Positions 290 to 18,100 are shown, counted from the stretch's first letter. The stretch is DNA of 18,653 nucleotides from Candidatus Bathyarchaeota archaeon (GCA_963833125.1 CAWHWX010000002.1:1-18653), one strand, 5' to 3'. The notes: generated from the letters alone by a model not told the origin. Numbers and translations are program-made.

Positions 290-1476
290 CTACCTAGCGG
301 TTAGTAAGTCTCCGTGTCCAGGTCCTCGGGGGATAATTGGCCAGATGTCGACAACTACCCCCCCCTCGACCACATGGTACGCATCGTAGAGGTTTACTGT
401 AGTTGGACCATACCCTGGAACGAACTCCATGGTACTTCCAAGTTTGAGGCTACATCGCTTGTCGACATCGAAGAGGGCATGCTCCTCCGCAAAGTAGCGT
501 GCCCGCATTTCAGATGGGTAATCCAACATCGTGGGTTGTACAAAGTCGATGCCGACTTGACTTACGACCGCAGTCAAATACGATTGTGTCTCCGTGCTGT
601 ATAACCACCGTTTCCCAGAACAGTCAGCGATTTCGGAAAGAACCCGGGACTAGGTTTCCATGGAAATTATCCTTCAAACGTAGGGTCCTCCCTTGAATCT
701 CAGTAACACGTGGATCTGCGCCCGTAATATCATAAGTACCAGTTCCGCCAGCCGAAACTATCTCACATTTGAACCCAGCCTCAGCTAGGCGACTGACTAC
801 CGTACCGATATGATCCATGGCTTCCCGAGCTTTCTTTACTCTCAATTCATGATCCGGTTCAAGCATACAATGTCCTGAGTACCCGCCTGCACGCCTCTGA
901 ACCTGAGGCCAGAAAGCGTAGCCAAATGTTTAGCCAGGTCTACGGCTTCATCTGGAGAACGAACACCTCCCCGCCGCCATTCCGACATCTATCTCGATGA
1001 TGACGTCAAGTTTGTTTCCCTACCTTAGAAACAGTCTTGGAGATGTCATCGGCATTATTCGCATCATCAACTGTGACCGTCAGGTGTCCATCTTTCGCAA
1101 CTTCGGCAAGCGTTTCGATTCTCTCCTTACCGACCACTGCAACTTAGCAATTAACACATCTTGGAGAGCGCCGCAGCTAATTACGAGGGCTTCCCAGACT
1201 GTGGCTGTGCAAACTCCGATCGCTCCCGCTTCATTTGCATTTTGGCTAATTCAATGCTTTTCTGGACCTTTATGTGAGGTCTCAGTTTAGCGTGCAGTGA
1301 TTTCAAACGTTGTGTCATGAAATTGATGTTGCGACGAACCACATCCAAGTCCAAGATCAATGCCGGCGTTATGAGCCCACGGCGATGTCTGCCTAACGCT
1401 GAACGGTATGAGTTGCATTAACCGCTTCTGAATTTCATCAATCTCTGGATAGGTTCTCGCACTTCGTTCGACTCAA
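290..1476 (-). CDS. DSD1/D-threonine aldolase-like PLP-dependent enzyme (alanine racemase fold), frameshifted; start approximate
   Basis: Joined fragments: ITPALILDLDVVRRNI..LRPHIKV (PLP Lys motif), AGAIGVCTATVWEA, IVSAGGTGTYDITG..VTEIQ (ORF 624-866), DCGRKS, AEEH..PTTVNLYD..VVDIWPIIPRG (ORF 290-577). Confidence 0.85.
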
Positions 1477-1683: not shown

Positions 1684-1908
1684 GAGTTAGAAATCACCAG
1701 AAGGAGATGAGGTCTTTATTCTAAAATCTTCTTGGAAGATCTGATCCCATTAACATTCCTGATTGACAGATTGTTTTTGCTTCAATAAGAAAGCAGAAAC
1801 CGATTATTAATCAAGTAGCGAGTCCTCGCAACGTTCAATTTGAGGCTTGAAATAAACAGCATCATGCCAAGTGTTAAATATAGTTCGAAGAACCAGTTTC
1901 ATATCCGC

Positions 1909-3490
1909 TTGTCTACACAGAAGGTATTCCTACGGGAAGCAACTGGATTAGTTAGGTCATTCACATGGTATGATGCGACTATATTGAGCCTGGCCGTAAC
2001 AGGACCTACCCTGTTCGGAATGTCCTCCCAAATCGGCTACGTAGCCCCTAACGGACCTGGAGCCGACTTCACAATTTCCACAATCATTGGATTCCTGTTC
2101 ATGATCCCCCTCGCAGTAGTATACTACATCTTTTCGGTTCAGATGCCAAGATCCGGAGGGGACTATGTGTGGCTTGGGCGAACACTGAACCCAATTTTGG
2201 GATTTGTTTGGGGGATGGGCTATGTTCGGATTTTCATTCATTGCGCTTCTAGCAAGCGCATCTGTAACTGAAACCGCAGTCGTTATACCAGACGTAGGCG
2301 TAGCCTTAGGATACATCTGGAACAACCCAGGACTAATTTCCTGGGGACAGAATTTCACAGAGTAGTACGACAAATCTATTCGCTTGGGACGATCCTCACG
2401 ATAATTATTGGGATTATTATCGCCGCTTGCACGCCAAGGGTTTACAGTCGTATTATGCTCGTTTTAGCTGGAATAATCTTCATTGCCTCTTTCATCTTCA
2501 TCGGCGCCTTCAGACGCAGACAAGTGCCTCATTTGCGACAGGGCTAAGTAACTTAACGAATGGAACCATGACGGTTAATGGAGTTGTATCTCAAGCCGCA
2601 GGTGGGCGGGTATGCCTTTCGTTCCGGTGAATCAGACCGCCACTTTCCTAGCAGTCCCATTTGGGGTCTTGCTATTCAACGGATTCAATTATTCCGTCTA
2701 CATCTCTGGCGAAGTAAGGAATGTGAAGAATGGAATGCTATGGGGTGTGATGGTTGCACTATTGATCTGCGGAATTGTCGATATAACGGGACTCTACTTC
2801 ATAACAAACCGCCGGAAAGCTACCCATTCATGCAAGCAGTGTTTGGGTTATTCAACCAGGGTCACTTCTCCCTAGGAGTTAACCCATCGTAGCCCGTTTT
2901 CATCCCAGCAGTCCTAAGCAACCCATACCTATGGAGTTCGTGGAGATCGGATTTCTATTATTCAACTTCTGGTGGGCCGCAGGCCTCGCCATCTGCATCT
3001 CGAGGTACGTGTTCGCATTCTCATTCGACCGGGTACTTCCAACCGTTTTCGCAGATGTGAACGATAGACTCCACGTCCCGTTGAAAGCGGTCGGGTTCAC
3101 TTTCGTAATTTCAGTCATCCTAACCTACATCGCCATATACACGACATACATCGGACAGCTGCTCAATGTGGTTACGATTTGGGCCGTCGTCTGGATTCTG
3201 GTAGGAATATCGGCCATTGTCCTTCCATTTTGGAAGAAAGGATTCTCCAAGGGTCTCATTGGCGATCTTTGGTTACTTCCAATCTTTGGCGTTCTAACAA
3301 TCATAGGCATGGGAACTACCCTCTACTGGTCTGTGACAAACCCTGCAATTGGGCCCTCGACTCCGGCCTCGACCCTCCTGCTGGTCGTGATATTCCGATC
3401 CGCTGTCGTCATCTACCTAGCGCGATACTTCTACTTCAAGGGCAAAGGTCTTGACCTTATAGAGGGCCAAATGGAGATACCACAGAATAA
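1909..3490 (+). CDS. APC-family amino acid/polyamine permease, frameshifted
   Basis: TTG at 1909 gives (M)STQKVFLREATGLVRSFTWYDA; MPRSGGDYVW; YISGEVRN; SRYVFAFSFDRVLP; many TM segments across ORFs 1840-2271, 2612-2875, 2931-3614. Likely true end EIP(P)E* at TAA 3488-3490. TTAAATA box about 30 nt upstream. Confidence 0.88.
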
Positions 3491-4602: not shown

Positions 4603-5497
4603 TCAGTATGCGCTGGTCGGTAAGAACTTCTCTACTCGTTTCCTGAGCTCTATAGCGGCTTTTGACCATTTCCCGTCGCACACATTGTTTAGGTAACTGT
4701 CATTCTCAAATTCGAGCGAGAGATACCCACGGTACCGAGAATTTCGTAGGGCCATGAAGAACTTCTTCCAATCGACTACTCCCTCGCCAAGAAATGGGAA
4801 AATGAAGGTTTCTCCAAGGCCACCCGGTTTCCCGAAGGCATCCTTCACATGTACATGTCGCACTTTATCACCGAGCATTTTCGCCGCCCAAACGGGGTCA
4901 TTTCCATACACCACAAAGTGAGATGGATCCCAGGTTCACTCCAAGATACTTGGAATCAAAGTAACTCAGAAACTCCTTAACAGTATAGTAGTCGTGCACC
5001 AACATTCCGAATACAGGTTCAACCGTAACCACGACATGATTCTTCTCCGCCGAGTCGACTAGATTAGAAAATGAATCGACAACAACCTTCCAAGCTTCGC
5101 CTTCCGAGATTTCCCGACCAATCCTCTGAAACTCAGGATTCCAAGTCATCGGTCCCGTGAAGACGTTCATCAAGGGGATGGATAATTCGCTCGCTTCCCC
5201 CAACATAGCGGTCAAGACTTTCAGACTCCTATTCCTAACGCTACGATTCTTTGTTACGAGATCCTGCCAACACATTATGTTCGATACGGCGAGGCCACGT
5301 CTTCTCGTTTTGATGACCAGCTTTCTGAGTTCCCTGGTAGTCCGGAAATGCTGACCTAGCATCCATTCTACACCCGGCGGTACCCTGCTTTCGAGATGAC
5401 GCAGGATGGCTTCGTCAGTTGACGGCGAAGCCCAAACCGCCGGGGAAGTCATGTAGTAAGGGATGAATGATAACTTCCAGTCGGAGGCTCTTGTCAA
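4603..5497 (-). CDS. Sugar phosphate isomerase/epimerase, xylose-isomerase-like TIM barrel, frameshifted near 4930
   Basis: Metal-site motifs VEP, N(L)DPSH after frame correction, HVHVKD, GEGVVDW, GYLSLEFE (ORFs 4898-5497 and 4603-4914). Confidence 0.85.
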
Positions 5498-5501
5498 TTT
5501 T

Positions 5502-6347
5502 CTAGTAAGAGCCTCCTATTTCCTTCGCGACGAGGCCTATTTCTGTCAGACATTTTTCATCTTCCGCTTTCTCGCCTAAAGTAAAATGCGTCATCCCAGC
5601 GTCCACATACTGTTCAACGTCTCTCCGAAGAGTCTGGATGTCTGTTCGGTTGATTAAGTTCGTAAATGCAAATTGGTCATGAGGATATTTTCGCTTGCTC
5701 AACTCGTCGAGGATTACTTTTCCCATTTCCGCATATTCGTTAGGTTTGGGGTAGCTATCGTCGAACCATCTCGGGCCTATCGGCATCCATCCATCCGCAT
5801 ACTTTCCCGCCCACGTGAAGCGACACTGGTAGATGTCCCCCCCACCAGATTGGTGGATAGGGTTTCTGAATTGGTTTAGGCTCGAGAGCGGCACCCTTTG
5901 CGTTTACATATTTCCCATGGAAATCCACCGACCCCGGCTCGGTCCATAAGCGTTTCATCAATCGGATTGCTTCAAGGCTAAACGGCGATTCTCTCCTTAT
6001 TCTCATGCCATTCGGAATACCCTTCGAACTCAGGCCGGTACCACCCAAACCCCACTCCAACTATCAGGCGTCCATCAGACAGGTAATCTATAGTTGAGGC
6101 CATCTTTGCTAGAATACCCGGCGGTCGAAATGTGAGAGGTGTAACGGCCGTTCCTAATCTGAGTTTGACGGTTTTCGCGGCCGAAGTAAGGGAGGAAGGT
6201 CCAAACATCGATATGATTGTTTGAGTTTGGGAGCATGAAATGATCTGTTACAAGAAAATAATCATAACCCACTTTTTCGGCTTCCACTGCGAGTCTTTCG
6301 ATGAGCTTCGGTTTTGCCCGTCCAGTGACAGCTATTCCACACTTCAA
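5502..6347 (-). CDS. Luciferase-like (LLM) flavin/F420-dependent oxidoreductase, frameshifted
   Basis: AEKVGYDYFLVTDHF, AAKTVKLRLGTAVTPLTFRPPGILAKMASTIDYLSDGRLIVGVGFGW, PKPIQKPYPPIWWGG, ADGWMP across four ORF fragments. The stop lies 4 nt before the isomerase start. Confidence 0.9.
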
Positions 6348-6384
6348 TCCACATACCTCGCTGAAGGAGGTCGATGTAGACTAA

Positions 6385-6400
6385 GGCTAATATACAAAGC
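6385..6400. promoter_or_regulatory. AT-rich TATA-like element in the 84-bp divergent intergenic region
   Basis: TAATATA at 6388-6394 lies about 40 nt from both start codons (6347 minus, 6432 plus). Confidence 0.45.
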
Positions 6401-6431
6401 GAATCGCCTGTCTTCTACGAGATGACAACCT

Positions 6432-6926
6432 ATGCCCACACCAGTCCCATCTGGAATGAGGATTACTCAGGTCGCGGTAGTTGTGAAGGATTTACGGAAA
6501 ACGATGGAAGCATATCACAAGATTCTCGGTTGGGGGCCCTGGAGTGTCTACGAACATAAACCCCCAATCCTGCACCACCAAGAACTCCATGGAAAATCGG
6601 CTAACTATTCCATGCTTGGCGCGGAAGTCCACTGTGACCCGATCGACTTCGAGATACTGCAACCTTTGGAAGGACCGAGTATCTACAAGGAGTTCTTAGA
6701 AGAGAAAGGTGAAGGACTGCATCACGTTTCGGTTGTTAGCCCTGCTGAGGATGTTGAAAAAGCACTCGCCGATTTCAAGAAAAACGGCGTTGACGTAATG
6801 ATGAGCGGAAGGCTAGGTGAGAACATCAGGTTCTACTACATGGATACTGAGCCAGTTTTGAAGATGGTGGCTGAGACCGTCAGTGGTCACGCGATTTCTA
6901 TGAAGCCCATCTACACCTACCCTTGA
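6432..6926 (+). CDS. VOC (glyoxalase/methylmalonyl-CoA epimerase-like) family protein
   Basis: Intact 164 aa: ITQVAVVVKDL, FEILQPLEGPSIYKEFLEEKGEGLHHVS, FYYMDT..VAE. Confidence 0.9.
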   Translation: MPTPVPSGMRITQVAVVVKDLRKTMEAYHKILGWGPWSVYEHKPPILHHQELHGKSANYSMLGAEVHCDPIDFEILQPLEGPSIYKEFLEEKGEGLHHVSVVSPAEDVEKALADFKKNGVDVMMSGRLGENIRFYYMDTEPVLKMVAETVSGHAISMKPIYTYP

Positions 6927-6984
6927 CATTCATCCATCGAAAATAGAAGCAAGCGCCGTAACAGACAAGCCCGAGGAGATCGAG

Positions 6985-7686
6985 ATGTCTGATTTCAGCC
7001 TACCAGGCGTTGAACAACGAATCATTGATGACTTGGCGAGTAAAACGGTTGAAGTAGCTCGTGGATTGTTTGAGAACCACCTAGTAACCTCCACATTCGG
7101 TGTCGTGAGCAATCGAATCCCCAACACCGACTATTCACTGATTACTCCGAGCGGGTTCAGCAAACTCACACTCAATACCCGCCATCTGATCATCGTAGAC
7201 CTAGACGCCAAACTTGTTCAAGGAAATTTCAGGCCATCCGTAGAAACCGCCATGCATACTTACATACACAAGAATCGGCCCGAAATCAGTACGGTGATTC
7301 ATACGCACTCACCGATGGCCTGCGCGTTTGCAGCCGCTAACATGGAGATTCCATGTGTGTCAGCGGAACAAGCATTCTACCTTGGAGGCAGAGTACCTCT
7401 GGTAAGGAAATATTCACTTCCCGGCACAACGGAACGTGCGGAGTTAGCGGCGGTCCTCAAGGCGCTCGAGAAATGTGATGCCGCTCTCCTGAGGAAGCAT
7501 GGAGTCGTTGTTGTCGGAAGGACCCCCGAAGAAGGGTTGGAGACCGCGATAGTGCTCGAGGACATTGCCAACATGGCCGTCCACTCAATGATTCTTGCGA
7601 AACCTAGGGAGTTCACCAGAAAGGAACTATCCTACTTGAAGGTCTTCAAACGAACGAGGTATGGACAGCATCCTTCTGCAAAATGA
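6985..7686 (+). CDS. Class II aldolase/adducin family (FucA/AraD-like) Zn enzyme
   Basis: Intact 233 aa: ITPSG, PSVETAMH (FucA-type catalytic Glu), HTHS and KHG Zn ligands, C-terminal YGQ; GAGGAG RBS. Confidence 0.9.
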   Translation: MSDFSLPGVEQRIIDDLASKTVEVARGLFENHLVTSTFGVVSNRIPNTDYSLITPSGFSKLTLNTRHLIIVDLDAKLVQGNFRPSVETAMHTYIHKNRPEISTVIHTHSPMACAFAAANMEIPCVSAEQAFYLGGRVPLVRKYSLPGTTERAELAAVLKALEKCDAALLRKHGVVVVGRTPEEGLETAIVLEDIANMAVHSMILAKPREFTRKELSYLKVFKRTRYGQHPSAK

Positions 7687-7711
7687 CCCTTACCCTAGGG
7701 CATGAGTCAGT

Positions 7712-9275
7712 TTGAGCAATGACTATCTGGCCGCAATAGACGCGGGAACGGGCAGCGGTAGGTGTGTAATCTTTGACTCGGAGGGCACACAAGTTGCGAT
7801 TGCTTCGAGGGAGTGGTCGCATCCTACGATCCCGGCGTATCCTGGAGCTTTTGTGTTTGACACCGTGCGCAATTGGAAGCTTATTTGCGAATCAATTCAC
7901 GAGGCGATTGATAGGGCTAAGATTCGGCCCGATGAAATTCGTGGCATAAGCGCGACCAGCATGCGTGAGGGCATGGTGCTCTATGATGAGGTTGGCAGTA
8001 GAAATCTGGGCCTGCCCGAACGTCGATTCGCGCGCGAAGAACGAAGTTGTCCAGATGATTAAGAAGGGTCTCGCTAAGAAGATCTACTTCAAGGCTGGGG
8101 ACTGGCTCGCGATTACCTCGCCTCCAAGATTCCTTTGGATAAAGAAACACGAGCCAGAGATCTTCAAGAAAACTGCAAAGATGACTATGATTAGCGACTG
8201 GATTCTTTACAGGCTGACAGAGAAATTTGCTACCGATCCTTCGATTGGCTCAAGCTCAAATCTGTTTCAACTCGAAAAAAGGACTTGGTCGGACGAAATC
8301 ATCGACTGGTGTTCCCTACCTAGAAGTATATTTCCGGACGTAAAGGAACCGGGAACAGTGCTAGGAGATGTCACGGCTGAGGCCGCCGCCGAGACAGGTT
8401 TCAAACTGGGAACCCCTGTAGTCGTAGGTGGGGGCGACACTCAGCTCGGTCTTATCGGTATATCCGCCGTTCAACCCTATGATTCCGCCACAATTGGCGG
8501 AACGTTCTGGCAACAAACGGTTGTCACAGACAAACCGATCATAGACCCGAAGATTCGATTGCGCACTCTTTGCCACGCAGTTCAAGGAATGTGGATGACA
8601 GAGGGAATAGGGTTCCTATGTGGATTGACAATGAGATGGTTTAGGGACGCGTTTTGCGAACGAGAAAAGGAAATTGCGGCTCGGGAAGGAGTTGATGCAT
8701 ACTCTTTGCTGGAAAAAGAGGCCGAAAAAGCGGGTGCCTGGTTCGAACGGTGTCATCCCAATTTTCTCAGACATAATGAATGCTAGAAGGTGGATTCATG
8801 CCTCCCCTTCCTTTGTGCAATTCGACATCAACCGACCCGAGGCATCTGGCAAGAAAGAGTGCGTCAGGGCGATTGAAGAGAGCGCGGCTTATGTGGCGTT
8901 GGGCCATCTGCAAATATTGCAAGCTCTCACCCATAGAAAAATGAAACAAGTTGTATTCTGCGGGGGGCATCGAAAGGCTTCCTGTGGCCCCAAATATTAT
9001 CAGACGTATTTGGTATCACGGTCAAGGTTCCGATAATCAAGGAATCTACGGCCCTAGGCGCGGCAATTTGCGCGGGAGTGGGCGTCGGGATATTTCGGAA
9101 CCTGAAAGAGACTGCGAAGAGCATGGTCAAATGGGACCGGACCTTCGAGCCCAATCAGACCACCCATAGAGAATACGTGAAATTTTACGGCCGATGGTGC
9201 AAAGTGTACAAGAAGTCGTTAGGGATGGTTGAAGAAGGTCTGGTGCAGCCGATGTTCAGGGCCGCCGGAACATAG
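7712..9275 (+). CDS. lsrK: Autoinducer-2 (DPD) kinase LsrK homologue, FGGY family, frameshifted
   Basis: LsrK-characteristic strings: YLAAIDAGTGSGRCVIFD, SMREGMVLY, IWACPNVDSRA, TMISDW, GTPVVVGGGDTQLG, GGTFWQQ, GLTMRWFRDAFC, GVIPIFSDIM..WIHASPSF, C-terminal GLVQPMFRAAGT. Confidence 0.82.
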
Positions 9276-9384
9276 ATCGAAGATCCTAGAATGAAACTCA
9301 TACGCGAACTTGAAATTGACTTGGAATACGAAGCGGAGAATGGCTAAAGAACTAGCCTGCAACTATTGACCAGCTGAGAAAGAA

Positions 9385-10404
9385 ATGGCGACCATAACCG
9401 AAGTACAAGAAGTACCGCAAAACGACTACGCAAAGTACGGCCTAACGAAGGATCTCTTACGTGAAATGCTCAGGAAGATGCTCATTATCAGAAAGTTCGA
9501 GGAGAAAGTCGAGGAACTATTCATTGTCAAAGGGTTATTGATAGGCCCATCTCACCTGTACCTAGGCCAAGAGGCGATAGCGACAGGCGCAATGATGGCG
9601 CTTCAGCCCAACGATTTAACGGTAACCACATATCGCGGCCACGGACACGCTCTTGCCAAAGATGTTCCGTCCAACCTCTGCATGGCGGAACTTTTCGGAA
9701 AATCAACGGGTAACTGCAAAGGGCTAGGCGGCTCCATGCACGTTGCAATCTACCCCAAAACGGGTTCCATTTACGCCACGGCTATAGTTGGTAGCGGAAT
9801 ACCCATCACCGCCGGGGTTGGGCTAGGCCTCAAACAAAAGAAGACAAAGCAGATTGCCGCCACATTCTTCGGCGACGGTGCTTGCAATACTGGCGCGTTC
9901 CATGAGGGTGTAAACCTCATCGCCCTTTGGAAGCTACCGGTTCTACTATTCTGCGAGAACAATCAGTACGGAATGTCCACCAATGTCAAGATGTCAGTTT
10001 CAAGCCCAAGCATCGCTGAGAGAGCCCGCTCCTACGGAATGGAAACGACGGTTGTCAATGGAAATGATGTTGTAGCGGTATACGCCGCAACCAAATCCGC
10101 TGCTGAAAAGGCCCGCAGAGACTCCACCCCAACGTTCCTTGAATGCCTAACTTACAAGATGAAAGGTCACGGAGTCTATGACAAGGGAGAATATCGTCCC
10201 AAGGAAGAAGTCGCGAAATGGCTCGAACGCGATCCTATTCTTACATTCAAGAAACGGCTCCTAGACCAGAAGATCATGACAAAGGCAGAACTTGAACAAC
10301 TCGACGCGACAACACAACAAGAAATCGAGGACTCGGTTAAATTCGCCATGCAAGGTTCACCTTTACCTTTCGACGAGATCGGAAACTACGTTTACGCAAA
10401 GTGA
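9385..10404 (+). CDS. TPP-dependent dehydrogenase E1 alpha (acetoin/pyruvate dehydrogenase-type)
   Basis: Intact 339 aa: [34 protein letters not shown] motif, RDPI. Confidence 0.95.
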
Positions 10405-10409
10405 TACCA

Positions 10410-11388
10410 ATGAAAGAACTCACTTATGCTGACGCACTCCGTGAAGCGCTGCGCGAAGAAATGATCCGTGATCCGAACGTGATACTTCTCGGGGAAGAAA
10501 TCGGCGTCTTCAACGGGGTCTACAAGGTTACTAGAGGTTTGCTCGACGAATTCGGGCCTGAACGTGTTAGGGATACTCCAATCTCAGAAGCAGCCATCAC
10601 TGGGGCGGCAGTGGGTTTGGCGTTGGCTGGCATGAGGCCCGTAGCCGAAATCATGTACATGGATTTCCTCCCCATATGCATGGATCAGTTGTCTACCCAA
10701 GCTGCAAAAATGCGCTTCATGAGTGGAGGTCAACTCCAGGTACCCATGGTCTTGAGAACCCAATACAGCCTCGGCCTGCAAACATGGATCACAGCACTCA
10801 CAATTCACGCCCGCTTGGTTTCTGCAGGCACCAGGATTGAAGGAAGCATTGCCCGCTGATCCAAGCGACGCTAAAGGCCTACTGAAGTCAGCAATACGAG
10901 ATCCCAACCCAGTCCTCTTCGTAGAGAGTGGCCTACTCTACCGAACTAAAGGACCAGTACCCGAAGAAGAATACCTAACCCCTCTCGGACAAGCAGCCGT
11001 GAAGAAGAAGGGGAATGATGTCACAATTGTAGGAGTTTCAAGAATGGTTAATGAATCTCTCGCAGCCGCGAAAAAACTTGAAGATAATGGCGTCTCAGCT
11101 GAAGTCATAGAGTGATAACAATACAACTGCTCGACCTTGATACAATCGTCGAGTCAGTTAAACGAACTTCCAGGCTGGTGATCGCATCCGATGATGTAAA
11201 GAGAGGTGGCGTGGGAGCCGAGATCTCAGCCTCAGTCACAGAGGCGGCCTTCGACTACTTAGATGCACCAATTACACGGGTCGCATGCCCGGACATGCCA
11301 ATACCATTCTCACCCTCCCCTCGAGCAGCAGTATATGCCCAACGCAGCGAGCGTAGTCCAAGCCGTCCAAACCATATTGGGCAAGTGA
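10410..11388 (+). CDS. TPP-dependent dehydrogenase E1 beta, frameshifted
   Basis: [35 protein letters not shown] after frame correction, [32 protein letters not shown]; stop TGA 11386-11388. Confidence 0.93.
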
Positions 11389-11394
11389 TTCATC

Positions 11395-12556
11395 TTGACG
11401 CAAGTTGTGATGCCGGCTTGATCCTGGAATGCAATCAGGCAAGATAGTTGAATGGCTGAAGAAGGAGGGCGAGTTGGTTAGAAAAGGCGAACCCATACTC
11501 GTCGTAGAAGGAGAGAAAACCACATTCGAAGTTGAAGCTCCAGACAGCGGCCCCTTAACCAAAATTCTAGCCAGCATCGGGACAGATGTCCAAGTTGCCG
11601 AACCAATCGCAATCATCGGAGAAGCCGGATCGGCAACACCCCAATCAGTACCAAACGAGAAAACTGAGCAAGAGCGACCACAGCAACCTTCTCTGTCCCT
11701 GCCTCCGGAACTCCGTCGGATCGGGTAATTGCATCTCCCGCAGCACGGCGTTTAGCCCAAGAATACGGACTCGACCTAACCTCCCTAAAGGGAACTGGCC
11801 CAGGTGGCCGAAAAACGCGGGAAGATATCCTCGCAGCAAAACAAAGCACACCCGCATCGCAGTCTACCCAAATCCTCTCAAAGATGCCTCAACCCGCCGT
11901 TCTAAAGAGAACGAAACTCGCAGGGATCAGAAAGGCTGTAGCCGAAAGACTTTCGTTCAGTGTGCGAACAGTCGTCCCAGTCACGATTACCATCGAAGCA
12001 GACGCCACGAAACTATTGGCGATGAAAGAGCAGAGCCACGTTGGGTTCTCAGCTCTCGGAGTAAAAGCAGCTGCAAAAGCATTGGGTGACCATACCGATG
12101 TTAACTCAACAATAGAAGGCGACGAAATTACAAATTACTCTGACGTAAACGTCGCCGTAGCCATACACACCGAACAAGGCCTAGTTGCACCTGTAATCAG
12201 GAATGCAAACAAACTATCTCTGAAGGAGATTAGCTCAACGATTGAAGAGCTCGCCAAGAAAGCTGCCGAGAATCGCCTAACAATTGAGAACTTGACTGGC
12301 GGAACATTCACGGTAACCAACCTCGGCGCATTCGACGTCGAATCGTTCGCACCCGTCATCAACCCTCCTCAATGCGCAATTCTTGGTCTGGGCCGAATCG
12401 CCTACAAACCATTCGCCAACGGAAGTCAGGTATCCGGCTAGACCATCAACCCTACTAACACTAGTTTTCGATCATCGAATTATCGATGGTGTCCCGGCGG
12501 CTAAGTTCCTAAGGGACCTGAAACGTAATCTTGAGGAACCGGAAGGCCTGCTCTAA
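11395..12556 (+). CDS. Dihydrolipoamide acyltransferase E2 (one lipoyl domain, PSBD, catalytic domain), frameshifted
   Basis: Lipoyl domain EWLKKEGE..VEGEKTTFEVEAP; PSBD ASPAARRLAQEYGLDLTSLKGTGPGG; GGTFTVTNLG, PVINPPQCAILG; catalytic FDHRIIDG near 12465-12490; stop TAA 12554-12556. Confidence 0.92.
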
Positions 12557-12596
12557 CTCCAACCTTCGATCGACGGATTATCGAGTATCTAGAAGC

Positions 12597-13657
12597 CTAC
12601 TTTGTTGGCGGACGCAAGGCTATCTTCAATGCCTTTCCGCTTCCCATCAACTGAAGAGCTTCCTCAGCCCGATCAAGAGGCATCTCGTGGGAGATTAGCG
12701 GTTTTATGGATACCCGCCCCGACACGATCAATCGGAAGGCCCGTTCAACTGAGGAAGGTGTATGGTGGAACGCTCCTTGAACGTGCAATTCGCCATAGTG
12801 TATCCTCTCCGCTTCGAATGAAGCCATCGTCCCTGACGGGCATCCGCCAAAGAGGAGGATTGTCCCGCCCTTTCGTGCTAGACCCGGAGCCGCGTCCCAA
12901 GTTTCACGTCGGCCAACCGCTTCCACGACCATATCAGCTCCTCTCCCGTCAGTTAGCTCACGGACCCTTGCTACGAGATCCTCAGTTGACGAGTTTATCG
13001 TTACATCCACTCCAACTCCCTTAGCCTCCTTCAACCGGTCTTCCACGAGATCACACAATGCCACCTGACGTGCACCGTTGAGCCGGCGAGTTGGGCATGT
13101 AACAGACCTATCGGGCCACCACCGATGATTACGACAGTTGCTCCGGCAGGTAGGTCCTTAGTAAGGTCCCACCCGTGAACGACGCAAGCCAAAGGTTCTA
13201 GACTGGCCACAGTCTCGAGTGGCACGCCCTCCGGCACCTGAAATGTATTCTGCCGAACTATTTTTTCTGGAACTCGAATATATTCAGCGTACGTCCCTGG
13301 CCAAGTGAACCCAATTATGCTGTCATTCAAATGCTCGCACAGATTCGGTTGGTGCAAGAGGCAGTAGAAGCATCGATTGCAAGGGGCTGTGTTCGCAGCA
13401 ACCACTTTCATCCCAACGCTAAAGTTTGTGACCTCTTTGCCGAGGGCGGAAACGGTTCCGGCGAATTCATGTCCCATTATCTGGGGCGGTTTTGCGAGTA
13501 GGTGCCCGTGTTTGTACATCTTAACATCTGTGCCGCATGTCAAAGCGACGGCGCTTTTCACAATCAATTCTCCCGGTTCAGGTTCAGGCACAGAAACTTG
13601 TTCCACTTTGAGATTACCGGGTTCGTAGAACCTAACTGCGAGCATTGTGTTTGCCAT
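12597..13657 (-). CDS. Zn-dependent medium-chain dehydrogenase (polyol/threonine dehydrogenase-like), frameshifted near 13080
   Basis: LTCGTD, GHE, CNRCFYC..C, EPLACVVHG, GGGPIG, acidic DLVEDR (NAD preference); GAGGAGGT RBS. Confidence 0.92.
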
Positions 13658-13728
13658 GAATTGATTCTTAACCTCCTCTGGTTAGTTGATATTTAGCTCC
13701 GCTGCAACTGACTGGGCTTCGCAGTCTC

Positions 13729-14756
13729 TCATTCGTTCTCAACCATTATCTTAACCGCTTCCCCCGCATTCTCCGCGAGGCGAAGCGCGTCTATTGTTCG
13801 AGCGAGCGGGAACCTGTCCGTAATGACCTCTGATGGTCTAACTCGTTTACTCTCGATCAGTTGCATTGCCATTCGCATTTCAGTTTCGGATGTGGAGTAG
13901 CTCGACTGAAACCGTACTTCTCGGAGAAACATCTTACTCATATCCAGTGACATCGTCGCGCCTCGTGTTGGTGCGCCGAACAGAAGGACTGTTCCTCCTT
14001 TACGAACCGTGGCAAACGCTGATTCTAGCGCTTTCAAGTTGGCGGTTGCGACAATCGCATAATCAACCCCGAGGCCTCCGGTTAATAGGGAAATTGTCTT
14101 AGGGGCGTCGTCGGTTGTTGGATCGAATGATAAATCGGCGCCTAACTTGGTCGCGAAATGTCTACGTTGCTTAATCACATCAATAGCGTATACGGGTCCG
14201 GCCCCGAAGCATTTCAGGAGTTGTACATGAGTCAGACCAACTGGACCCAGACCATATATCGCGACACTGTTACCCACAGAAACGCCAACCTTACGAAGTG
14301 CTCGGATGCAACATGCTGTGGGCTCTGCCTGTGAGCCTTCCTCGAAACTCATGGAATCAGGCAACTTGTACACCGTTCCCCCGTTCACTAGCGCCTTTGG
14401 AACCCTGAAATATTCCCGAACCCGCAAGGATCGAGATTGCTTTTCGGATATTCTTCGCAAAGCGTTTCGAGGCCGTTCTTGCAAAAGTAGCAGTGGCGGC
14501 ATGACACATGATGGTGTACGACGACTCGATCGCCGACAGCAAAGTCTTTGATTTGTGTTCCGGCTTTGTGTATTACTCCAGATACCTCATGTCCAAGGAT
14601 GGGAGGAGTAATGTGTTCTCCATGAACCTTCTCCACATCAGTCCCGCAGATCCCACACGCTCGCATAGCCACGAGTATCTCGTCGGGATTAATCTCAGGC
14701 GTAGGGAGGTTCTGAATCTGAACCGTTCCATTCTCTTGGATGATTACGGCTTGCAC
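13729..14756 (-). CDS. Zn-dependent medium-chain dehydrogenase, frameshifted near 14420
   Basis: CGICGTD, GHE, HHHVSCRHCYFC..C, EPTACCIRA, GLGPVG, DVIKQR. Confidence 0.92.
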
Positions 14757-15433: not shown

Positions 15434-18100
15434 TCAGCTTAGCTTCAGCTCTGCAAAAACATTCTCCTGTTCTCTCCGGATGGAGCAGCCAAGTTTTTCG
15501 CAGAGTCGGATCATCCTGAGATTCTCACCCATCACTGTACCATAAATCGATTCAATTCCTTTCTCCTTAGCGAATTCAATTAACATATCGACTAACTTGA
15601 CACCCAGACCCTTTCCCTGATATTTGTCGGCAACCACGACTGCGAATTCGCCCCGTTTCTTGTTGGGTTCGAGAATTAAACGGCTTACTCCGATCTCCAA
15701 CGTTCGGTTTCCTTCTCGGGTTTCCGCGATGATTGCCATCTCCCTGTCGTAGTCGATATTGCAGAAACGGACGAGGGCCTCATGTGGGAGGTCCTTGATT
15801 ATTTGGAAGAATCTGAATCGGCTTGTTTCCGTCGACAAGCCTCTTATGAATTCTAACTCTATGGGTTCGTCTTCCGGTTTTATGGGCCTTAGAGTGACTT
15901 CGGTCCCATCTTTCATTCTCCAGGGCATGACATATTTTGACGGGTAGGGTGTGATTACCAAATGGGGGTAGGGTTCGGTATGGTCGAGAGCGCGAGGATC
16001 AATAATCATCCTTGCGTCGAGAACGGAGAATTCACCCTTGGAGGCGATGAGTGGGTTGATGTCCATCTCAGCGATTTCGGGGAAGTCAACGATGAGATTG
16101 GAGAACCGTACCATGATCTCTTCGAGGGGTCGTATGTCGACGGGTTTCTTGTTCCGTAGACCTTTCGTAAGCGCTTTGAATATCTTTGTTTCTTCCATGA
16201 TGCGATGTGCGAGAATCTGATTTAGCGGCGCGAGTCCGAGCGAGACATCGTTAATGAGTTCAACTCCTGTCCCGCCCATTCCAAATAGAATCACAAATCC
16301 AAAATCCTTGTCCTTTTTCGCGCCTAGGATGAGTTCGTAGTCGATCTCAGATGCCATTTTTTGCACATAGATACCATCGATTTTAGCTTCAGGTTTGGCT
16401 TTGTGGGCTCTATCGATAATGGCCTTGTATGCATCCTTGACCGCTTGAGCTGAGTCAATGCGGGTAACGACTCCCCCAATGTCTGTTTTGTGAAGAATGT
16501 CTTCGGAGGAGATTTTCAACGCTACTGGGTAACCGATGTCTAACGCGATCATGGCCGCTTGGTCTGCGCTTTTGCTCAACGCACCCTTCGCTCTTGGGAT
16601 TGCGTAGGCGTCGAGGAATCGGTCAACTTCAGATTGATTGAGGGCTTTCCCGTCTTCGCTGCCTTGCGAATCAGTACTTTGAGATGGCTCTTTGGCGGAG
16701 AGAAGTCCACTTGTAATTCTTGTGGGGTTTGGTAGAGCTGGTCGAGGTTTCTTCTGTATTGGTACATGTACGTGTAGGTCTTTATCGCTTCTTCAGGCGT
16801 TGGGTAAGTCGGGATGTCGTTACGGTGGAATATTTCGCGACTTTCCCTGACGCTGCTCTCGCCCATCCAGACCGTAAGCATTGGTTTGCGTCTGTCCGCG
16901 GCGATTTTCGTAACGGCTTCGGCGAGCGGGGCGGGTTGACTCGTTCCTTGGGGAGTGTAGATTACAAGGAGTCCATCAACATTCGGATCCGCAATGCAGG
17001 TCTTCACAGCGAGTTCATACCGAGAGACGTCAGCGTCCCCTAGTATGTCGAGTGGATTTCCTCGGCTCCAGTATGGAGGAAGGGCTCCATTCAGTATTTT
17101 CATGGACTCGTCAGACAACTGTGCTAGTTGGCCACCATGAGTGACAATTGAGTCAGCTGCTAAGACCGCTGGTCCTCCAGCGTTGGTGACTATGGCTAAG
17201 TTCGGTCCCGCTGGCAGAAACCTTGAGTCTAGGACGGTGGCGCAATTGAAGAGGTCTCCAATTTCGTCGACCATCACAACGCCCGCTCTCTTGAAGGCGG
17301 CCTCGTAGACTGCGAAGTCACCCGCTAGTGCGCCTGTGTGTGAGGATGCTGCTTTTGCGCCAGCAGAGTTTCTTCCCGCCTTGATTACAATAATAGGTTT
17401 TGTGCGTGCAAAGCCTCTGGCCGAACTCATGAACTTCTTGGCGTTTCCGACGCCTTCCATGTAGATGATGATGCTCCTAGTGTTTGGGTCCTCGCCAAGG
17501 TAATCGATCATATCCCCATAGTCGATGTCTAGGGTCGATCCTAGCGAAGCGAAAATGCTGAAGCCTATGCCCGTGCTTACCGCCCAGTTGACTATCGCAG
17601 ATCCCAATGCTCCGCTCTGTGAGATGAATGCAATTTGGCCAGGTTGAGGGTTGTCTCTCAGGAACGTGGCATTGAGAGCTACCTGTGGCCTCGCCACGCC
17701 CACACAGTTTGGTCCTAGAATTCGAATGTCCTGCAGCGATTGAATTTGCTTAATCTCGCTCTCTAGTTCGACGCCTTCAGCTCCGATCTCTCGGAACCCG
17801 GCCGAAATGATGACGGTGCCTTCCACGCCAGCCTTCGCCGCACTCCGCTACTATGGACGGTACAGTCCTTGCTGGTGTAGCGATTACAGCCAGATCGATG
17901 TGTTCTGGTATCTTGGATATCGATGGGTAACACTTCAATCCCATGACGGTATCCTTGTTTATGTTCACTGGGTAGATTTTCCTGCGATCCTTGCCCAATA
18001 GTAGGTTTCTTGTCAGAGATTGACCGATCGATCCCTCGCTCTCAGAAGCCCCGATTATAGCAACGACTTTGGGGTTCAGCATTTTCTCGATACTGGCCAT
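15434..18100 (-). CDS. ADP-forming acyl-CoA ligase (alpha+beta) fused to C-terminal GNAT acetyltransferase (Pat-type architecture), frameshifted
   Basis: VAIIGAS..IYPVN; ILGPNCVG, ISQSGALG, ASSHTGALAG, NPLDILGDA; IGYPVALKISSEDILHKTDIGGV, EMDINPL; GNAT LRPIKPED..IDYDREMA..EFAVVVADKYQGKGLG. Confidence 0.93.

Follow-up and report, generated by a model that had tools for sequence, protein, structure and literature searches.

How an archaeon could process the product of an LsrK-family kinase when neither LsrF nor LsrG can be found in its genome is the question raised by an 18,653-nucleotide contig of a Candidatus Bathyarchaeota archaeon (GCA_963833125.1 CAWHWX010000002.1:1-18653; this whole stretch is called the window in the following). 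Here, genes for a VOC/glyoxalase-fold protein, a class II aldolase, the kinase and the E1alpha, E1beta and E2 components of a 2-oxoacid/acetoin-dehydrogenase-type complex follow each other in one direction, with two convergent Zn-dependent medium-chain dehydrogenases (MDR1 and MDR2) behind them. The reading favoured in this work is that an acyloin-type E1/E2 complex, resident in the genus, performs the acetyl-CoA-forming cleavage of LsrF on a phosphate resembling that of 4,5-dihydroxy-2,3-pentanedione (DPD, autoinducer-2 or AI-2); judged from sequence, it is tentative and somewhat short of an even chance.

LsrK-family kinase and missing Lsr partners

That the kinase is an LsrK homologue, as claimed in a preliminary description of this DNA, is confirmed by curated models as well as by solved structures. 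The fragments encoded in the window score 122.5, 303.6, 78 and 54.9 bits on the NCBIfam LsrK equivalog NF008187, and the intact orthologue of the related genome G016, which is 89% identical to the window kinase over the C-terminal 405 amino acids, reaches 668.7 bits at a cutoff of 528. Among structures in the PDB, LsrK (5ya0) matches the kinase at E = 2.3e-117, compared with 1.2e-29 for xylulokinase and 2.3e-28 for glycerol kinase. A Thermotoga-type ribulokinase was considered as an alternative identity and rejected, since T. maritima, with its validated ribulokinase, scores under the LsrK cutoff; the E. coli control genome likewise stays under this cutoff and is thus uninformative as a control. 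DPD or a DPD-like compound would be a candidate substrate of the kinase. Elsewhere in the source genome (G000:C19:119197-121279), a class II aldolase-family gene with 30% identity to that of the island lies directly upstream of another FGGY kinase, which obtains 199 bits on the LsrK model, far under the cutoff; the two probably form a conventional kinase/aldolase pair for a deoxy-sugar or a pentulose.

The preliminary description had noted that LsrF, LsrG, LsrR and LsrACDB are missing from the window and had proposed to search the source genome for lsrF, lsrG and luxS. Such searches of the genome, which is 87.8% complete, agree with it. The best score on the LsrF thiolase model NF006081 is 182.3 bits against a cutoff of 297, and the top tblastn match to E. 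coli LsrF is only 32% identical. With E. coli queries, tblastn gave no match in the genome to LsrG, LsrR, LsrB, LsrC or LsrD, no LuxS was found, and LsrA queries matched generic ABC ATPases only. As a positive control, LsrB, LsrC, LsrD and LsrR are detected with these queries in relatives from the Bacillaceae and Anaerolineae (38-66% identity): relatives of two bacterial carriers discussed below (loci L066 and L084) possess canonical operons with LsrR, LsrACDB (LsrB 53-66% identical) and LsrF. Additionally, a phmmer search with E. coli LsrG, at the sensitivity of a single-sequence query, returned no hit at E <= 1 among 17,639 open reading frames of the window and all loci, the E. coli control excepted.

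LsrK neighbourhoods in archaea and bacteria

Neighbourhoods of LsrK-like kinases were compared in the best 80 of 593 confirmed stretches of a kinase survey, for which named loci were fetched by homologue alignment. The loci were scored by tblastn with the island proteins and the Lsr proteins of E. coli K-12, using self-chosen thresholds and a distance of 6 kb; many of the contigs are short, and related genomes represent non-independent observations. True LsrF was found within 6 kb of the kinase in 49 of the 80 loci, mostly with 58-63% identity to E. coli LsrF, and E1alpha together with E1beta in six, yet both never occurred at the same locus (0/80). Hence, the lack of LsrF that the preliminary description had noted beside E1/E2 in the window holds for the other E1-type loci of the survey as well. 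LsrF-like proteins of the survey pass NF006081 (467 and 379 bits), and an LsrF orthologue was found in none of five E1-type genomes tested, where the best matches are 27-37% identical or absent. LsrG and LsrB were detected at none of the 80 loci with the K-12 queries. Other recurrent partners are a BhcC-like pyridoxal phosphate (PLP) enzyme (46 loci), an LsrR-like regulator (33) and a cyclase (31).

Loci of the E1 type occur in the genus of the window (L031, L032), in a second Bathyarchaeia lineage, where E1/E2 is convergent on LsrK (L035), and in bacteria. Locus L066, from a Pseudogracilibacillus isolate, combines a fused double VOC, LsrK, a sugar-binding protein, an ABC ATPase, a permease and an AraD-type protein with E1alpha-E1beta-E2-E3; its binding protein was considered as an LsrB orthologue and rejected at 22% identity. 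In L084 (Anaerolineaceae), LsrK, an AraD-type protein, E1alpha, E1beta, E2 and a histidine-phosphatase-family gene form a tight string, and in the bacterial locus L097 LsrK faces VOC, E1beta and E1alpha. In L234 (G651:C12), from an Anaerolineae-order bacterium, E1alpha starts 29 nt past LsrK and is succeeded by E1beta and E2, near a ketol-acid reductoisomerase-like gene. LsrK leads directly into E1alpha-E1beta-E2 in the tight operons of L084 and L234, and L066 carries E3 as well. Further archaeal metagenome contigs link LsrK with E1/E2, their E1alpha being 55-62% identical.

Two of these loci deserve a remark of their own. The record of L032 names an Acidiferrales (Acidobacteriota) bacterium, yet its gene order matches that of the locus in the Bathyarchaeia genus and its proteins are 63-86% identical; the contig is probably mis-binned or mislabelled. 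The wider surroundings of L234 (2653-15326) comprise an aldo/keto reductase, a nucleoside-hydrolase-family protein, the ketol-acid reductoisomerase-like protein and two GH106-like proteins before LsrK, and an APH-family kinase after E2, an unusual gene mix around acyloin chemistry.

Trees were obtained from quick LG+G4 searches. In the kinase tree (87 rows), the E1 state requires at least four changes relative to the LsrF state. In the E1beta tree, the archaeal copies linked to LsrK are united in a single clade (support 99), L066 and L084 cluster with Firmicutes E1-E3 operons (97), and L097 stands apart, which argues that E1 was recruited more than once. The kinase of L035, a hot-spring Bathyarchaeia contig, is sister to that of the Bacillota isolate L066 (support 97), both loci being of the E1 type with E1beta genes that are not sisters; this suggests inter-domain transfer of the kinase. 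Altogether, both archaea and bacteria beyond the genus share the arrangement, so that the lack of conservation elsewhere, which the preliminary description had regarded as decisive against its proposal, was not observed.

A reverse test started from an alignment of the archaeal aldolase, which retrieved 80 metagenome loci that were sorted by the gene 3' of LsrK. The class II aldolase turned out to be an obligate neighbour of archaeal LsrK. In 25 of the 80 loci the C-terminal part of LsrK lies off the contig, and in another 19 the contig ends less than 600 b past LsrK. LsrK runs straight into E1/E2 in 16 loci, into DhaK-DhaL in eight (two of which continue with E1alpha-E1beta-E2) and into something else in 12, but into an LsrF orthologue in none. 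A second archaeal layout is represented by L127 (G183:C49, 1-10169), L158, L173 and L182-L184, with a PLP enzyme, aldolase, short-chain dehydrogenase/reductase (SDR), VOC, cyclase, LsrK, DhaK, DhaL, class II fructose-bisphosphate aldolase (FBA, PF01116), a second FGGY kinase and a further TIM barrel; DhaK-DhaL is inserted between LsrK and E1alpha in L131 and L161.

Conservation within the genus

Of the 22 further genomes in the genus, 10 have the kinase; across the class, it is rare and occurs in 13 of 401 genomes, which fall into 3 of 131 genera. This patchiness suggests lateral acquisition of the LsrK module. Wherever the kinase occurs in the genus (10/10 genomes), it sits with E1alpha-E1beta-E2, the proteins being 57-95% identical. 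The usual order is VOC, aldolase, LsrK, E1alpha, E1beta and E2, with the two convergent MDRs next where the contig is long enough. As the genes are syntenic in ten other genomes, the arrangement is not due to chance. In G010, G006, L167 and L189, VOC is located after E2, and E1/E2 is thereby bracketed by genes of the LsrK module.

Enzymes of the island

E1alpha shows the GDG...NN thiamine motif in its translation and reaches 347.8 bits on TIGR03182, the equivalog model of pyruvate dehydrogenase E1alpha, under the cutoff of 393.85. The intact E1beta encoded on contig C3, which carries a further copy of the locus, passes NF006667, a subfamily model of pyruvate dehydrogenase E1beta (384.6 versus 321). 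For E2, lipoyl, E3-binding and catalytic domains were identified by Pfam in the C3 copy, the translation of which includes the DHRxxDG motif. Together, PF00676, PF02779, PF02780, PF00364, PF02817 and PF00198 place the three proteins in a complex of the 2-oxoacid/acetoin dehydrogenase type. The sole acetoin-specific curated model matched is NF011457, on which E2 obtains 82 bits against a cutoff of 307, and the PDB matches of E1alpha, all at family level, include no solved acetoin-type E1. Annotated plasmid relatives of E1beta have generic names and varied contexts and provide no functional label. E3 is encoded outside the operon, with candidates at G000 C1:348139 and C14:81919 as well as in G016, G014 and G002, and a lipoate-ligase domain is encoded elsewhere in the genome. 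Given the full set of E2 domains, the E3 candidates and the lipoate-ligase domain, the complex looks competent. That an E1 of the AcoAB type may cleave acyloins, as stated in the preliminary description, has a precedent: in the acetoin dehydrogenase system, both diacetyl (a diketone) and methylacetoin (an acyloin) serve E1 as acetyl donors (PMC12247030).

Two further E1alpha/E1beta/E2 sets exist in the source genome, at G000:C24:2948-6128 (40-49% identity to the set of the island) and G000:C1:356493-359749 (32-48%). The latter has an E3 candidate at a distance of about 8 kb and possibly encodes the housekeeping complex.

Of the two dehydrogenases, MDR1 resembles threonine, sorbitol and alcohol dehydrogenases, with generic NCBIfam and PDB matches, and the PDB matches of MDR2 include sorbitol, alcohol and (R,R)-butanediol dehydrogenases. 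Both are syntenic with E1/E2 irrespective of LsrK. The same holds for an 888-amino-acid protein encoded past the MDRs (also L022 1613-4279), which is kept beside the E1/E2/MDR block with or without LsrK. Its identification as an ADP-forming acetyl-CoA synthetase was rejected, because Pfam reveals CoA_binding_2, Succ_CoA_lig, Ligase_CoA_2 and ATP-grasp_5 domains fused to a C-terminal GNAT domain in the G016 orthologue; an ATP-forming role is therefore not assumed. We take this fusion to be the architecture of Pat-type protein acetyltransferases.

The VOC protein matches PF13669 with 51.1 bits and the methylmalonyl-CoA epimerase model with 46 bits against 114.95, and its only clear PDB match is the uncharacterised protein 3gm5. 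No other partner accompanies LsrK-like kinases as constantly, VOC being found at 44% identity or more in 56 of the 80 loci. At a threshold of 30% identity, VOC lies within 6 kb in 38 of the 49 LsrF-type loci, LsrG being absent from all 49; hence, it is a candidate to stand in for the LsrG isomerase. VOC is missing from the E1 block of LsrK-negative genomes.

In the class II aldolase, the HxH metal motif (HTHS) and a PSVET motif align with E. coli FucA and AraD. PSVET of the archaeal proteins corresponds to PSSE of FucA, whereas PSVDT of the bacterial partners corresponds to PSSDT of AraD; we take the Glu motif to be aldolase-type and the Asp motif to be epimerase-type. The aldolases of the window (159.9 bits) and of L035 (174.6) fall under the cutoff of NF005123, the model of Thermotoga-type L-ribulose-5-phosphate 4-epimerase (251), which is passed by the bacterial partners of L066 (300.6) and L084 (276.8). 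PDB sequence searches with VOC, the aldolase and both MDRs gave matches at family level only.

Proposed route and competing explanations

The favoured reading treats the island as two joined modules, a division which we draw from gene content and synteny. Observed are the family assignments, the absences, the synteny and the co-occurrence of genes; all statements on substrates are inferences. The APC permease, VOC, Glu-type class II aldolase and LsrK-family kinase would form one of them, probably acquired laterally. The other would be resident in the genus and consist of E1alpha-E1beta-E2, the two MDRs and the acyl-CoA-synthetase-like/GNAT protein, with E3 supplied from elsewhere in the genome; the LsrK module would accordingly be an add-on upstream of the resident block. 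In such a route, the kinase would phosphorylate the terminal hydroxyl group of DPD or of a close 1-deoxy keto-pentose, and VOC would isomerise the product in the role of LsrG. The thiamine-dependent E1 would then cut the methyl-ketone diketone or acyloin phosphate between C2 and C3, and the lipoyl-E2 would hand the acetyl group to CoA. The remaining C3 phosphate would enter glycolysis, possibly after reduction of an aldehyde product to dihydroxyacetone phosphate (DHAP) by an MDR, in which case the overall reaction could be redox-neutral like that of LsrF. This proposal would account for the exclusion of E1 and LsrF beside LsrK and the absence of LsrF from entire E1-type genomes, as well as for a linkage that was rebuilt repeatedly and in both domains, and for operons with E1/E2 between LsrK and VOC.

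A more specific version, which goes further than the preliminary description, would be an LsrF- and LsrG-independent consumption of the interspecies signal AI-2 by archaea and some bacteria, in which a lipoate-dependent E1/E2(/E3) acts directly on phospho-DPD, its isomer or a 1-deoxy-pentulose 5-phosphate and VOC is a non-homologous replacement of LsrG; to us, it appears less probable than not. What stands of the preliminary description is the LsrK-family kinase, the absence of the other Lsr proteins and the linkage to E1; E1/E2 and the MDRs, however, are not dedicated to the kinase, and the luciferase-like (LLM) oxidoreductase and TIM-barrel isomerase, which had been proposed as pathway enzymes, are specific to a lineage. 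Within the genus, these two were found only in the closest relatives G016 and G019, and otherwise in L079 (Nitrososphaerota) and some metagenome loci, which weakens their assignment to the pathway.

Several observations weigh against a joint function of LsrK and E1/E2. An orthologous E1alpha (74-78% identity) is kept in each of the five LsrK-negative genomes tested within the genus, and four of these genomes keep the entire block of E1alpha-E1beta-E2-MDR1-MDR2-synthetase/GNAT without VOC, aldolase and LsrK, which argues that E1/E2 and the MDRs, taken by the preliminary description for partners of the kinase, are a resident module with its own substrate. The adjacency could hence reflect insertion at a variable site. 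Nor is E1/E2 obligatory for archaeal LsrK, since only 16 of the 36 contigs with at least 600 b past LsrK run straight into E1/E2, with eight leading into DhaK-DhaL and 12 elsewhere, and the archaeal LsrK-aldolase pair is also found with DhaKL and class II FBA in place of E1/E2. Of the 80 surveyed LsrK loci, 25 have neither LsrF nor E1, several of them on truncated contigs. The aldolase partners are not orthologous, as the PSVET motif of the archaea contrasts with PSVDT and the passing of NF005123 in bacteria (Glu type versus Asp, AraD type), so that merely the family recurs. In L066, a gap of 334 nt precedes E1alpha, and E1beta groups with Firmicutes E1-E3 operons that lack LsrK. Searches of the genome gave no LsrB-type receptor, and nothing indicates supply of DPD to the organism or its uptake. 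Finally, the counts include non-independent kin, cover the best 80 of 593 stretches and are accompanied by quick trees.

Part of this evidence would fit two separate pathways that happen to be adjacent, an explanation that is less probable than not but has a sizeable share of our expectation. Here, the resident block would ferment a small diol or acyloin such as 2,3-butanediol or acetoin, and the LsrK module would cleave its substrate by the Glu-type aldolase, giving DHAP and a C2 aldehyde after reduction of the phospho-intermediate; at most, an acetaldehyde-like product or co-regulation would be shared. We infer a butanediol/acetoin-type substrate for the resident block from its gene content: the MDRs resemble polyol, butanediol and alcohol dehydrogenases, and in both upstream regions examined (G014, G011) the block is preceded by a 260-amino-acid protein of unknown function and a MIP-family channel. 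MIP channels carry small diols, and acetoin is fermented via such enzymes in some anaerobes. Moreover, the aldolase with its FucA-like Glu motif is the constant partner of archaeal LsrK even where E1/E2 is missing. Separate pathways leave unexplained, however, why E1 and LsrF do not co-occur beside LsrK (0/80), why bacteria with AraD-type partners also lack LsrF and have E1/E2, and why VOC follows E2 inside the operon in four cases. An aldolase tracking the absence of LsrF was likewise considered and rejected, since the aldolase family occurs in 5 of 31 LsrF-less loci compared with 5 of 49 LsrF loci.

Quite unlikely, in our estimate, is an ordinary route for a pentose, pentitol or deoxy-sugar that has been misnamed, in which a pentulokinase, an epimerase/aldolase, the TIM isomerase, MDRs of the polyol dehydrogenase type and a downstream pyruvate/2-oxoacid dehydrogenase would act without any involvement of AI-2 or DPD. 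Sugar-type enzymes (TIM, MDRs, SDR) are indeed present in the island, relatives add a second FGGY kinase, DhaKL and class II FBA, the kinases of L066 and L084 are paired with a Thermotoga-type AraD, E1beta passes a pyruvate dehydrogenase model, and the genome lacks LsrB and LuxS. Yet the kinase passes the LsrK equivalog cutoff, which T. maritima fails, and the same kinase clade travels mostly with proteins that pass the LsrF model, pointing to diketone chemistry; E1alpha remains under the pyruvate dehydrogenase equivalog cutoff, in a genome with two other E1/E2 sets, one of them near E3. By far the least probable explanation is a functionless adjacency, with the LsrK module having landed at a variable insertion site upstream of E1alpha. 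This site does vary within the genus, being occupied by MIP and the 260-residue protein, by VOC-aldolase-LsrK or by VOC-aldolase-LsrK-DhaK-DhaL, and the distribution of LsrK is patchy; the linkage has nevertheless been rebuilt in two domains, with gene orders and orientations that vary and with E1 and kinases of distinct lineages, and E1 and LsrF exclude each other beside LsrK.

Comparison with known systems

With the canonical Lsr system of E. coli and Salmonella, the island shares a kinase assigned to the LsrK family by a curated model and by similarity to solved LsrK, and the proposed outcome, acetyl-CoA and a triose phosphate, would match the LsrF reaction annotated in the K-12 record. It differs in that LsrR, LsrACDB, LsrF and LsrG are lacking from window and genome; instead, there are a candidate APC importer, VOC at the position of the isomerase and E1/E2 at that of the thiolase.

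Similar gene content is seen in a soil-type cluster of Actinomycetota, Chloroflexota and Nitrososphaerota (L036-L110, e.g. L073, L105 and L110), which comprises an LsrR-like regulator, VOC, LsrK, LsrF, a PLP enzyme, an SDR and a PF04199 cyclase and lacks LsrG and LsrB. Its kinases belong to the same clade and are 50-60% identical to the window kinase, VOC is 45-56% identical to the bacterial and 80-83% to the Nitrososphaerota copies, and its PLP enzyme, cyclase, SDR and permease have counterparts on the flanks of the window's operon. The cluster, however, encodes a true LsrF (58-63% identical to E. coli, passing NF006081) without adjacent E1/E2, where the window holds E1/E2 and the Glu-type class II aldolase. 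As one possibility, the PLP/SDR/cyclase trio could carry out oxidation, ring opening and either deamination or aldol cleavage of an amino-sugar-like precursor. Most LsrK/LsrF pairs of Actinomycetota and Chloroflexota reside in clusters with VOC, PLP enzyme, SDR and cyclase, free of LsrG and LsrB, which suggests that soil 'LsrK/LsrF' serves the catabolism of DPD-like compounds rather than enteric-style quorum sensing.

The acetoin dehydrogenase system (AcoA/AcoB/AcoC/AcoL) resembles the resident block in its heteromeric E1alpha/E1beta, lipoyl-E2 and neighbouring butanediol/polyol-type Zn-dehydrogenases. It differs from the operon of the window, which lacks E3, has an LsrK module fused upstream and stays far from the acetoin-specific E2 model. 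The closest annotated relatives of E1beta (52-54% identity) are found in operons of SorC-type regulator, E1alpha, E1beta, E2 and LpdA beside sugar transporters of the phosphotransferase system (PTS) in C. difficile (L211 6014-11934) and Brevibacillus laterosporus (L212 6986-12934), which group with the E1beta of L066 and L084. Their regulator belongs to the sugar-phosphate-sensing LsrR/SorC family (26% identity over the full length, E = 4e-32). Unlike the archaeal island, these operons contain no LsrK, in line with a PTS that would itself deliver the phosphorylated substrate, and the archaeal E1beta belongs to a different clade. They are hints that E1/E2/E3 complexes may be tied to phosphosugar metabolism in Firmicutes.

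In the literature searched, no report of an archaeal LsrK or of a link between LsrK and E1/E2 was found, in agreement with the preliminary description, which had not recognised the arrangement as a described one; no description of the soil-type VOC/LsrK/LsrF/PLP/SDR/cyclase cluster was found there either. In the consulted part of a study on ammonia-oxidising archaea, 'lsrF' candidates are described by their authors as FbaB-like archaeal aldolases and LsrK is unmentioned (PMC11442133), and the consulted part of a paper on the FGGY family does not treat LsrK as a studied group (PMC3245297).

If the favoured reading is true, a second, non-homologous way leads from the AI-2 skeleton to acetyl-CoA and triose phosphate, archaea of peat and sediment are also capable of removing a bacterial signal, and phosphosugar-derived acyloins represent a new substrate class for complexes of the 2-oxoacid dehydrogenase type. 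With the Pseudogracilibacillus isolate behind L066, a cultured carrier exists in which this idea is testable.

Gene map and assembly quality

Every gene family that the preliminary description had listed was found at its place and on its strand by analysis of open reading frames, Pfam and NCBIfam (Table 1). The extent given in that description, 4603-14756, is too short, as APC permease, PLP enzyme and cyclase lie upstream of it; PLP enzyme, cyclase, SDR and permease flank the operon on C3, and in part in the window. Intergenic gaps within the operon amount to 25-110 nt, and E1alpha and E1beta overlap by 4 nt.

Table 1 Features of the window, with coordinates counted from its first nucleotide
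Feature	Position	Strand	Identified by
PF04199 cyclase-family hydrolase, fragment cut by contig end	2..273	-	tblastn with intact C3 copy; Pfam on C3 copy
PLP enzyme, D-threonine aldolase/D-serine dehydratase-like (BhcC-like), frameshifted	302..1469	-	PF01168+PF14031 on C3 copy
APC-family amino-acid-type permease, frameshifted	1888..3482	+	PF13520 on C3 copy
Xylose-isomerase-like TIM barrel (sugar isomerase/epimerase fold), one frame break	4603..5497	-	PF01261
Luciferase-like (LLM) oxidoreductase, several frame breaks	5502..6347	-	PF00296
VOC/glyoxalase-fold protein, intact	6432..6926	+	PF13669
Class II aldolase/adducin-family protein, intact	6985..7686	+	PF00596, 144.5 bits
LsrK-family FGGY kinase, at least four frames	7712..9275	+	NCBIfam NF008187 on fragments
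E1alpha, TPP-binding subunit of 2-oxoacid/acetoin-dehydrogenase-type complex, intact	9385..10404	+	PF00676, 262.5 bits
E1beta, frameshifted	10401..~11390	+	PF02779/PF02780 on fragments
E2 dihydrolipoamide acyltransferase, frameshifted	~11393..12556	+	PF00364+PF02817+PF00198 on intact C3 copy
Zn-dependent MDR dehydrogenase 1, convergent on E2, one frame break	12597..13675	-	PF08240+PF00107
Zn-dependent MDR dehydrogenase 2, one frame break	13729..14756	-	PF08240+PF00107
NDP-forming acyl-CoA synthetase-like/GNAT fusion, frameshifted	15434..18100	-	Pfam on intact G016 orthologue
TPP, thiamine pyrophosphate

The window is the entire contig C2 of a 3.07-Mb genome in 39 contigs with 7% contamination, and homologues of the kinase carry the NCBI names Bathyarchaeia or Nitrososphaerota archaeon. 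C2 is 97.6% identical to C16:88612-107231, with 91 gap positions and mostly indel differences, and the third copy of the locus, a strain copy on C3, is 90.6% identical to C2; this redundancy and strain mixing probably contribute to the contamination estimate. According to a frame map against intact orthologues, only VOC, aldolase and E1alpha have unbroken reading frames in the window, and TIM, LLM, LsrK, E1beta, E2, both MDRs and the gene beyond them are broken. The set of broken genes differs among C2, C16 and C3, and C3 carries intact versions of nearly all of them (its kinase has one break). Pseudogenisation was rejected because the positions of the breaks vary among the copies and relatives are intact; the frame breaks are hence regarded as assembly noise.

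Among the flanking genes, the TIM barrel gives weak NCBIfam matches only (IolE, epimerases), and LLM, probably an F420-dependent oxidoreductase, obtains 158 bits on TIGR03619 at a cutoff of 166.9. The C3 copy of the PLP enzyme reaches 265 bits on the NCBIfam BhcC model, under the cutoff of 690. The APC permease adjoins the operon in most genomes of the genus and is likely the importer of the island.

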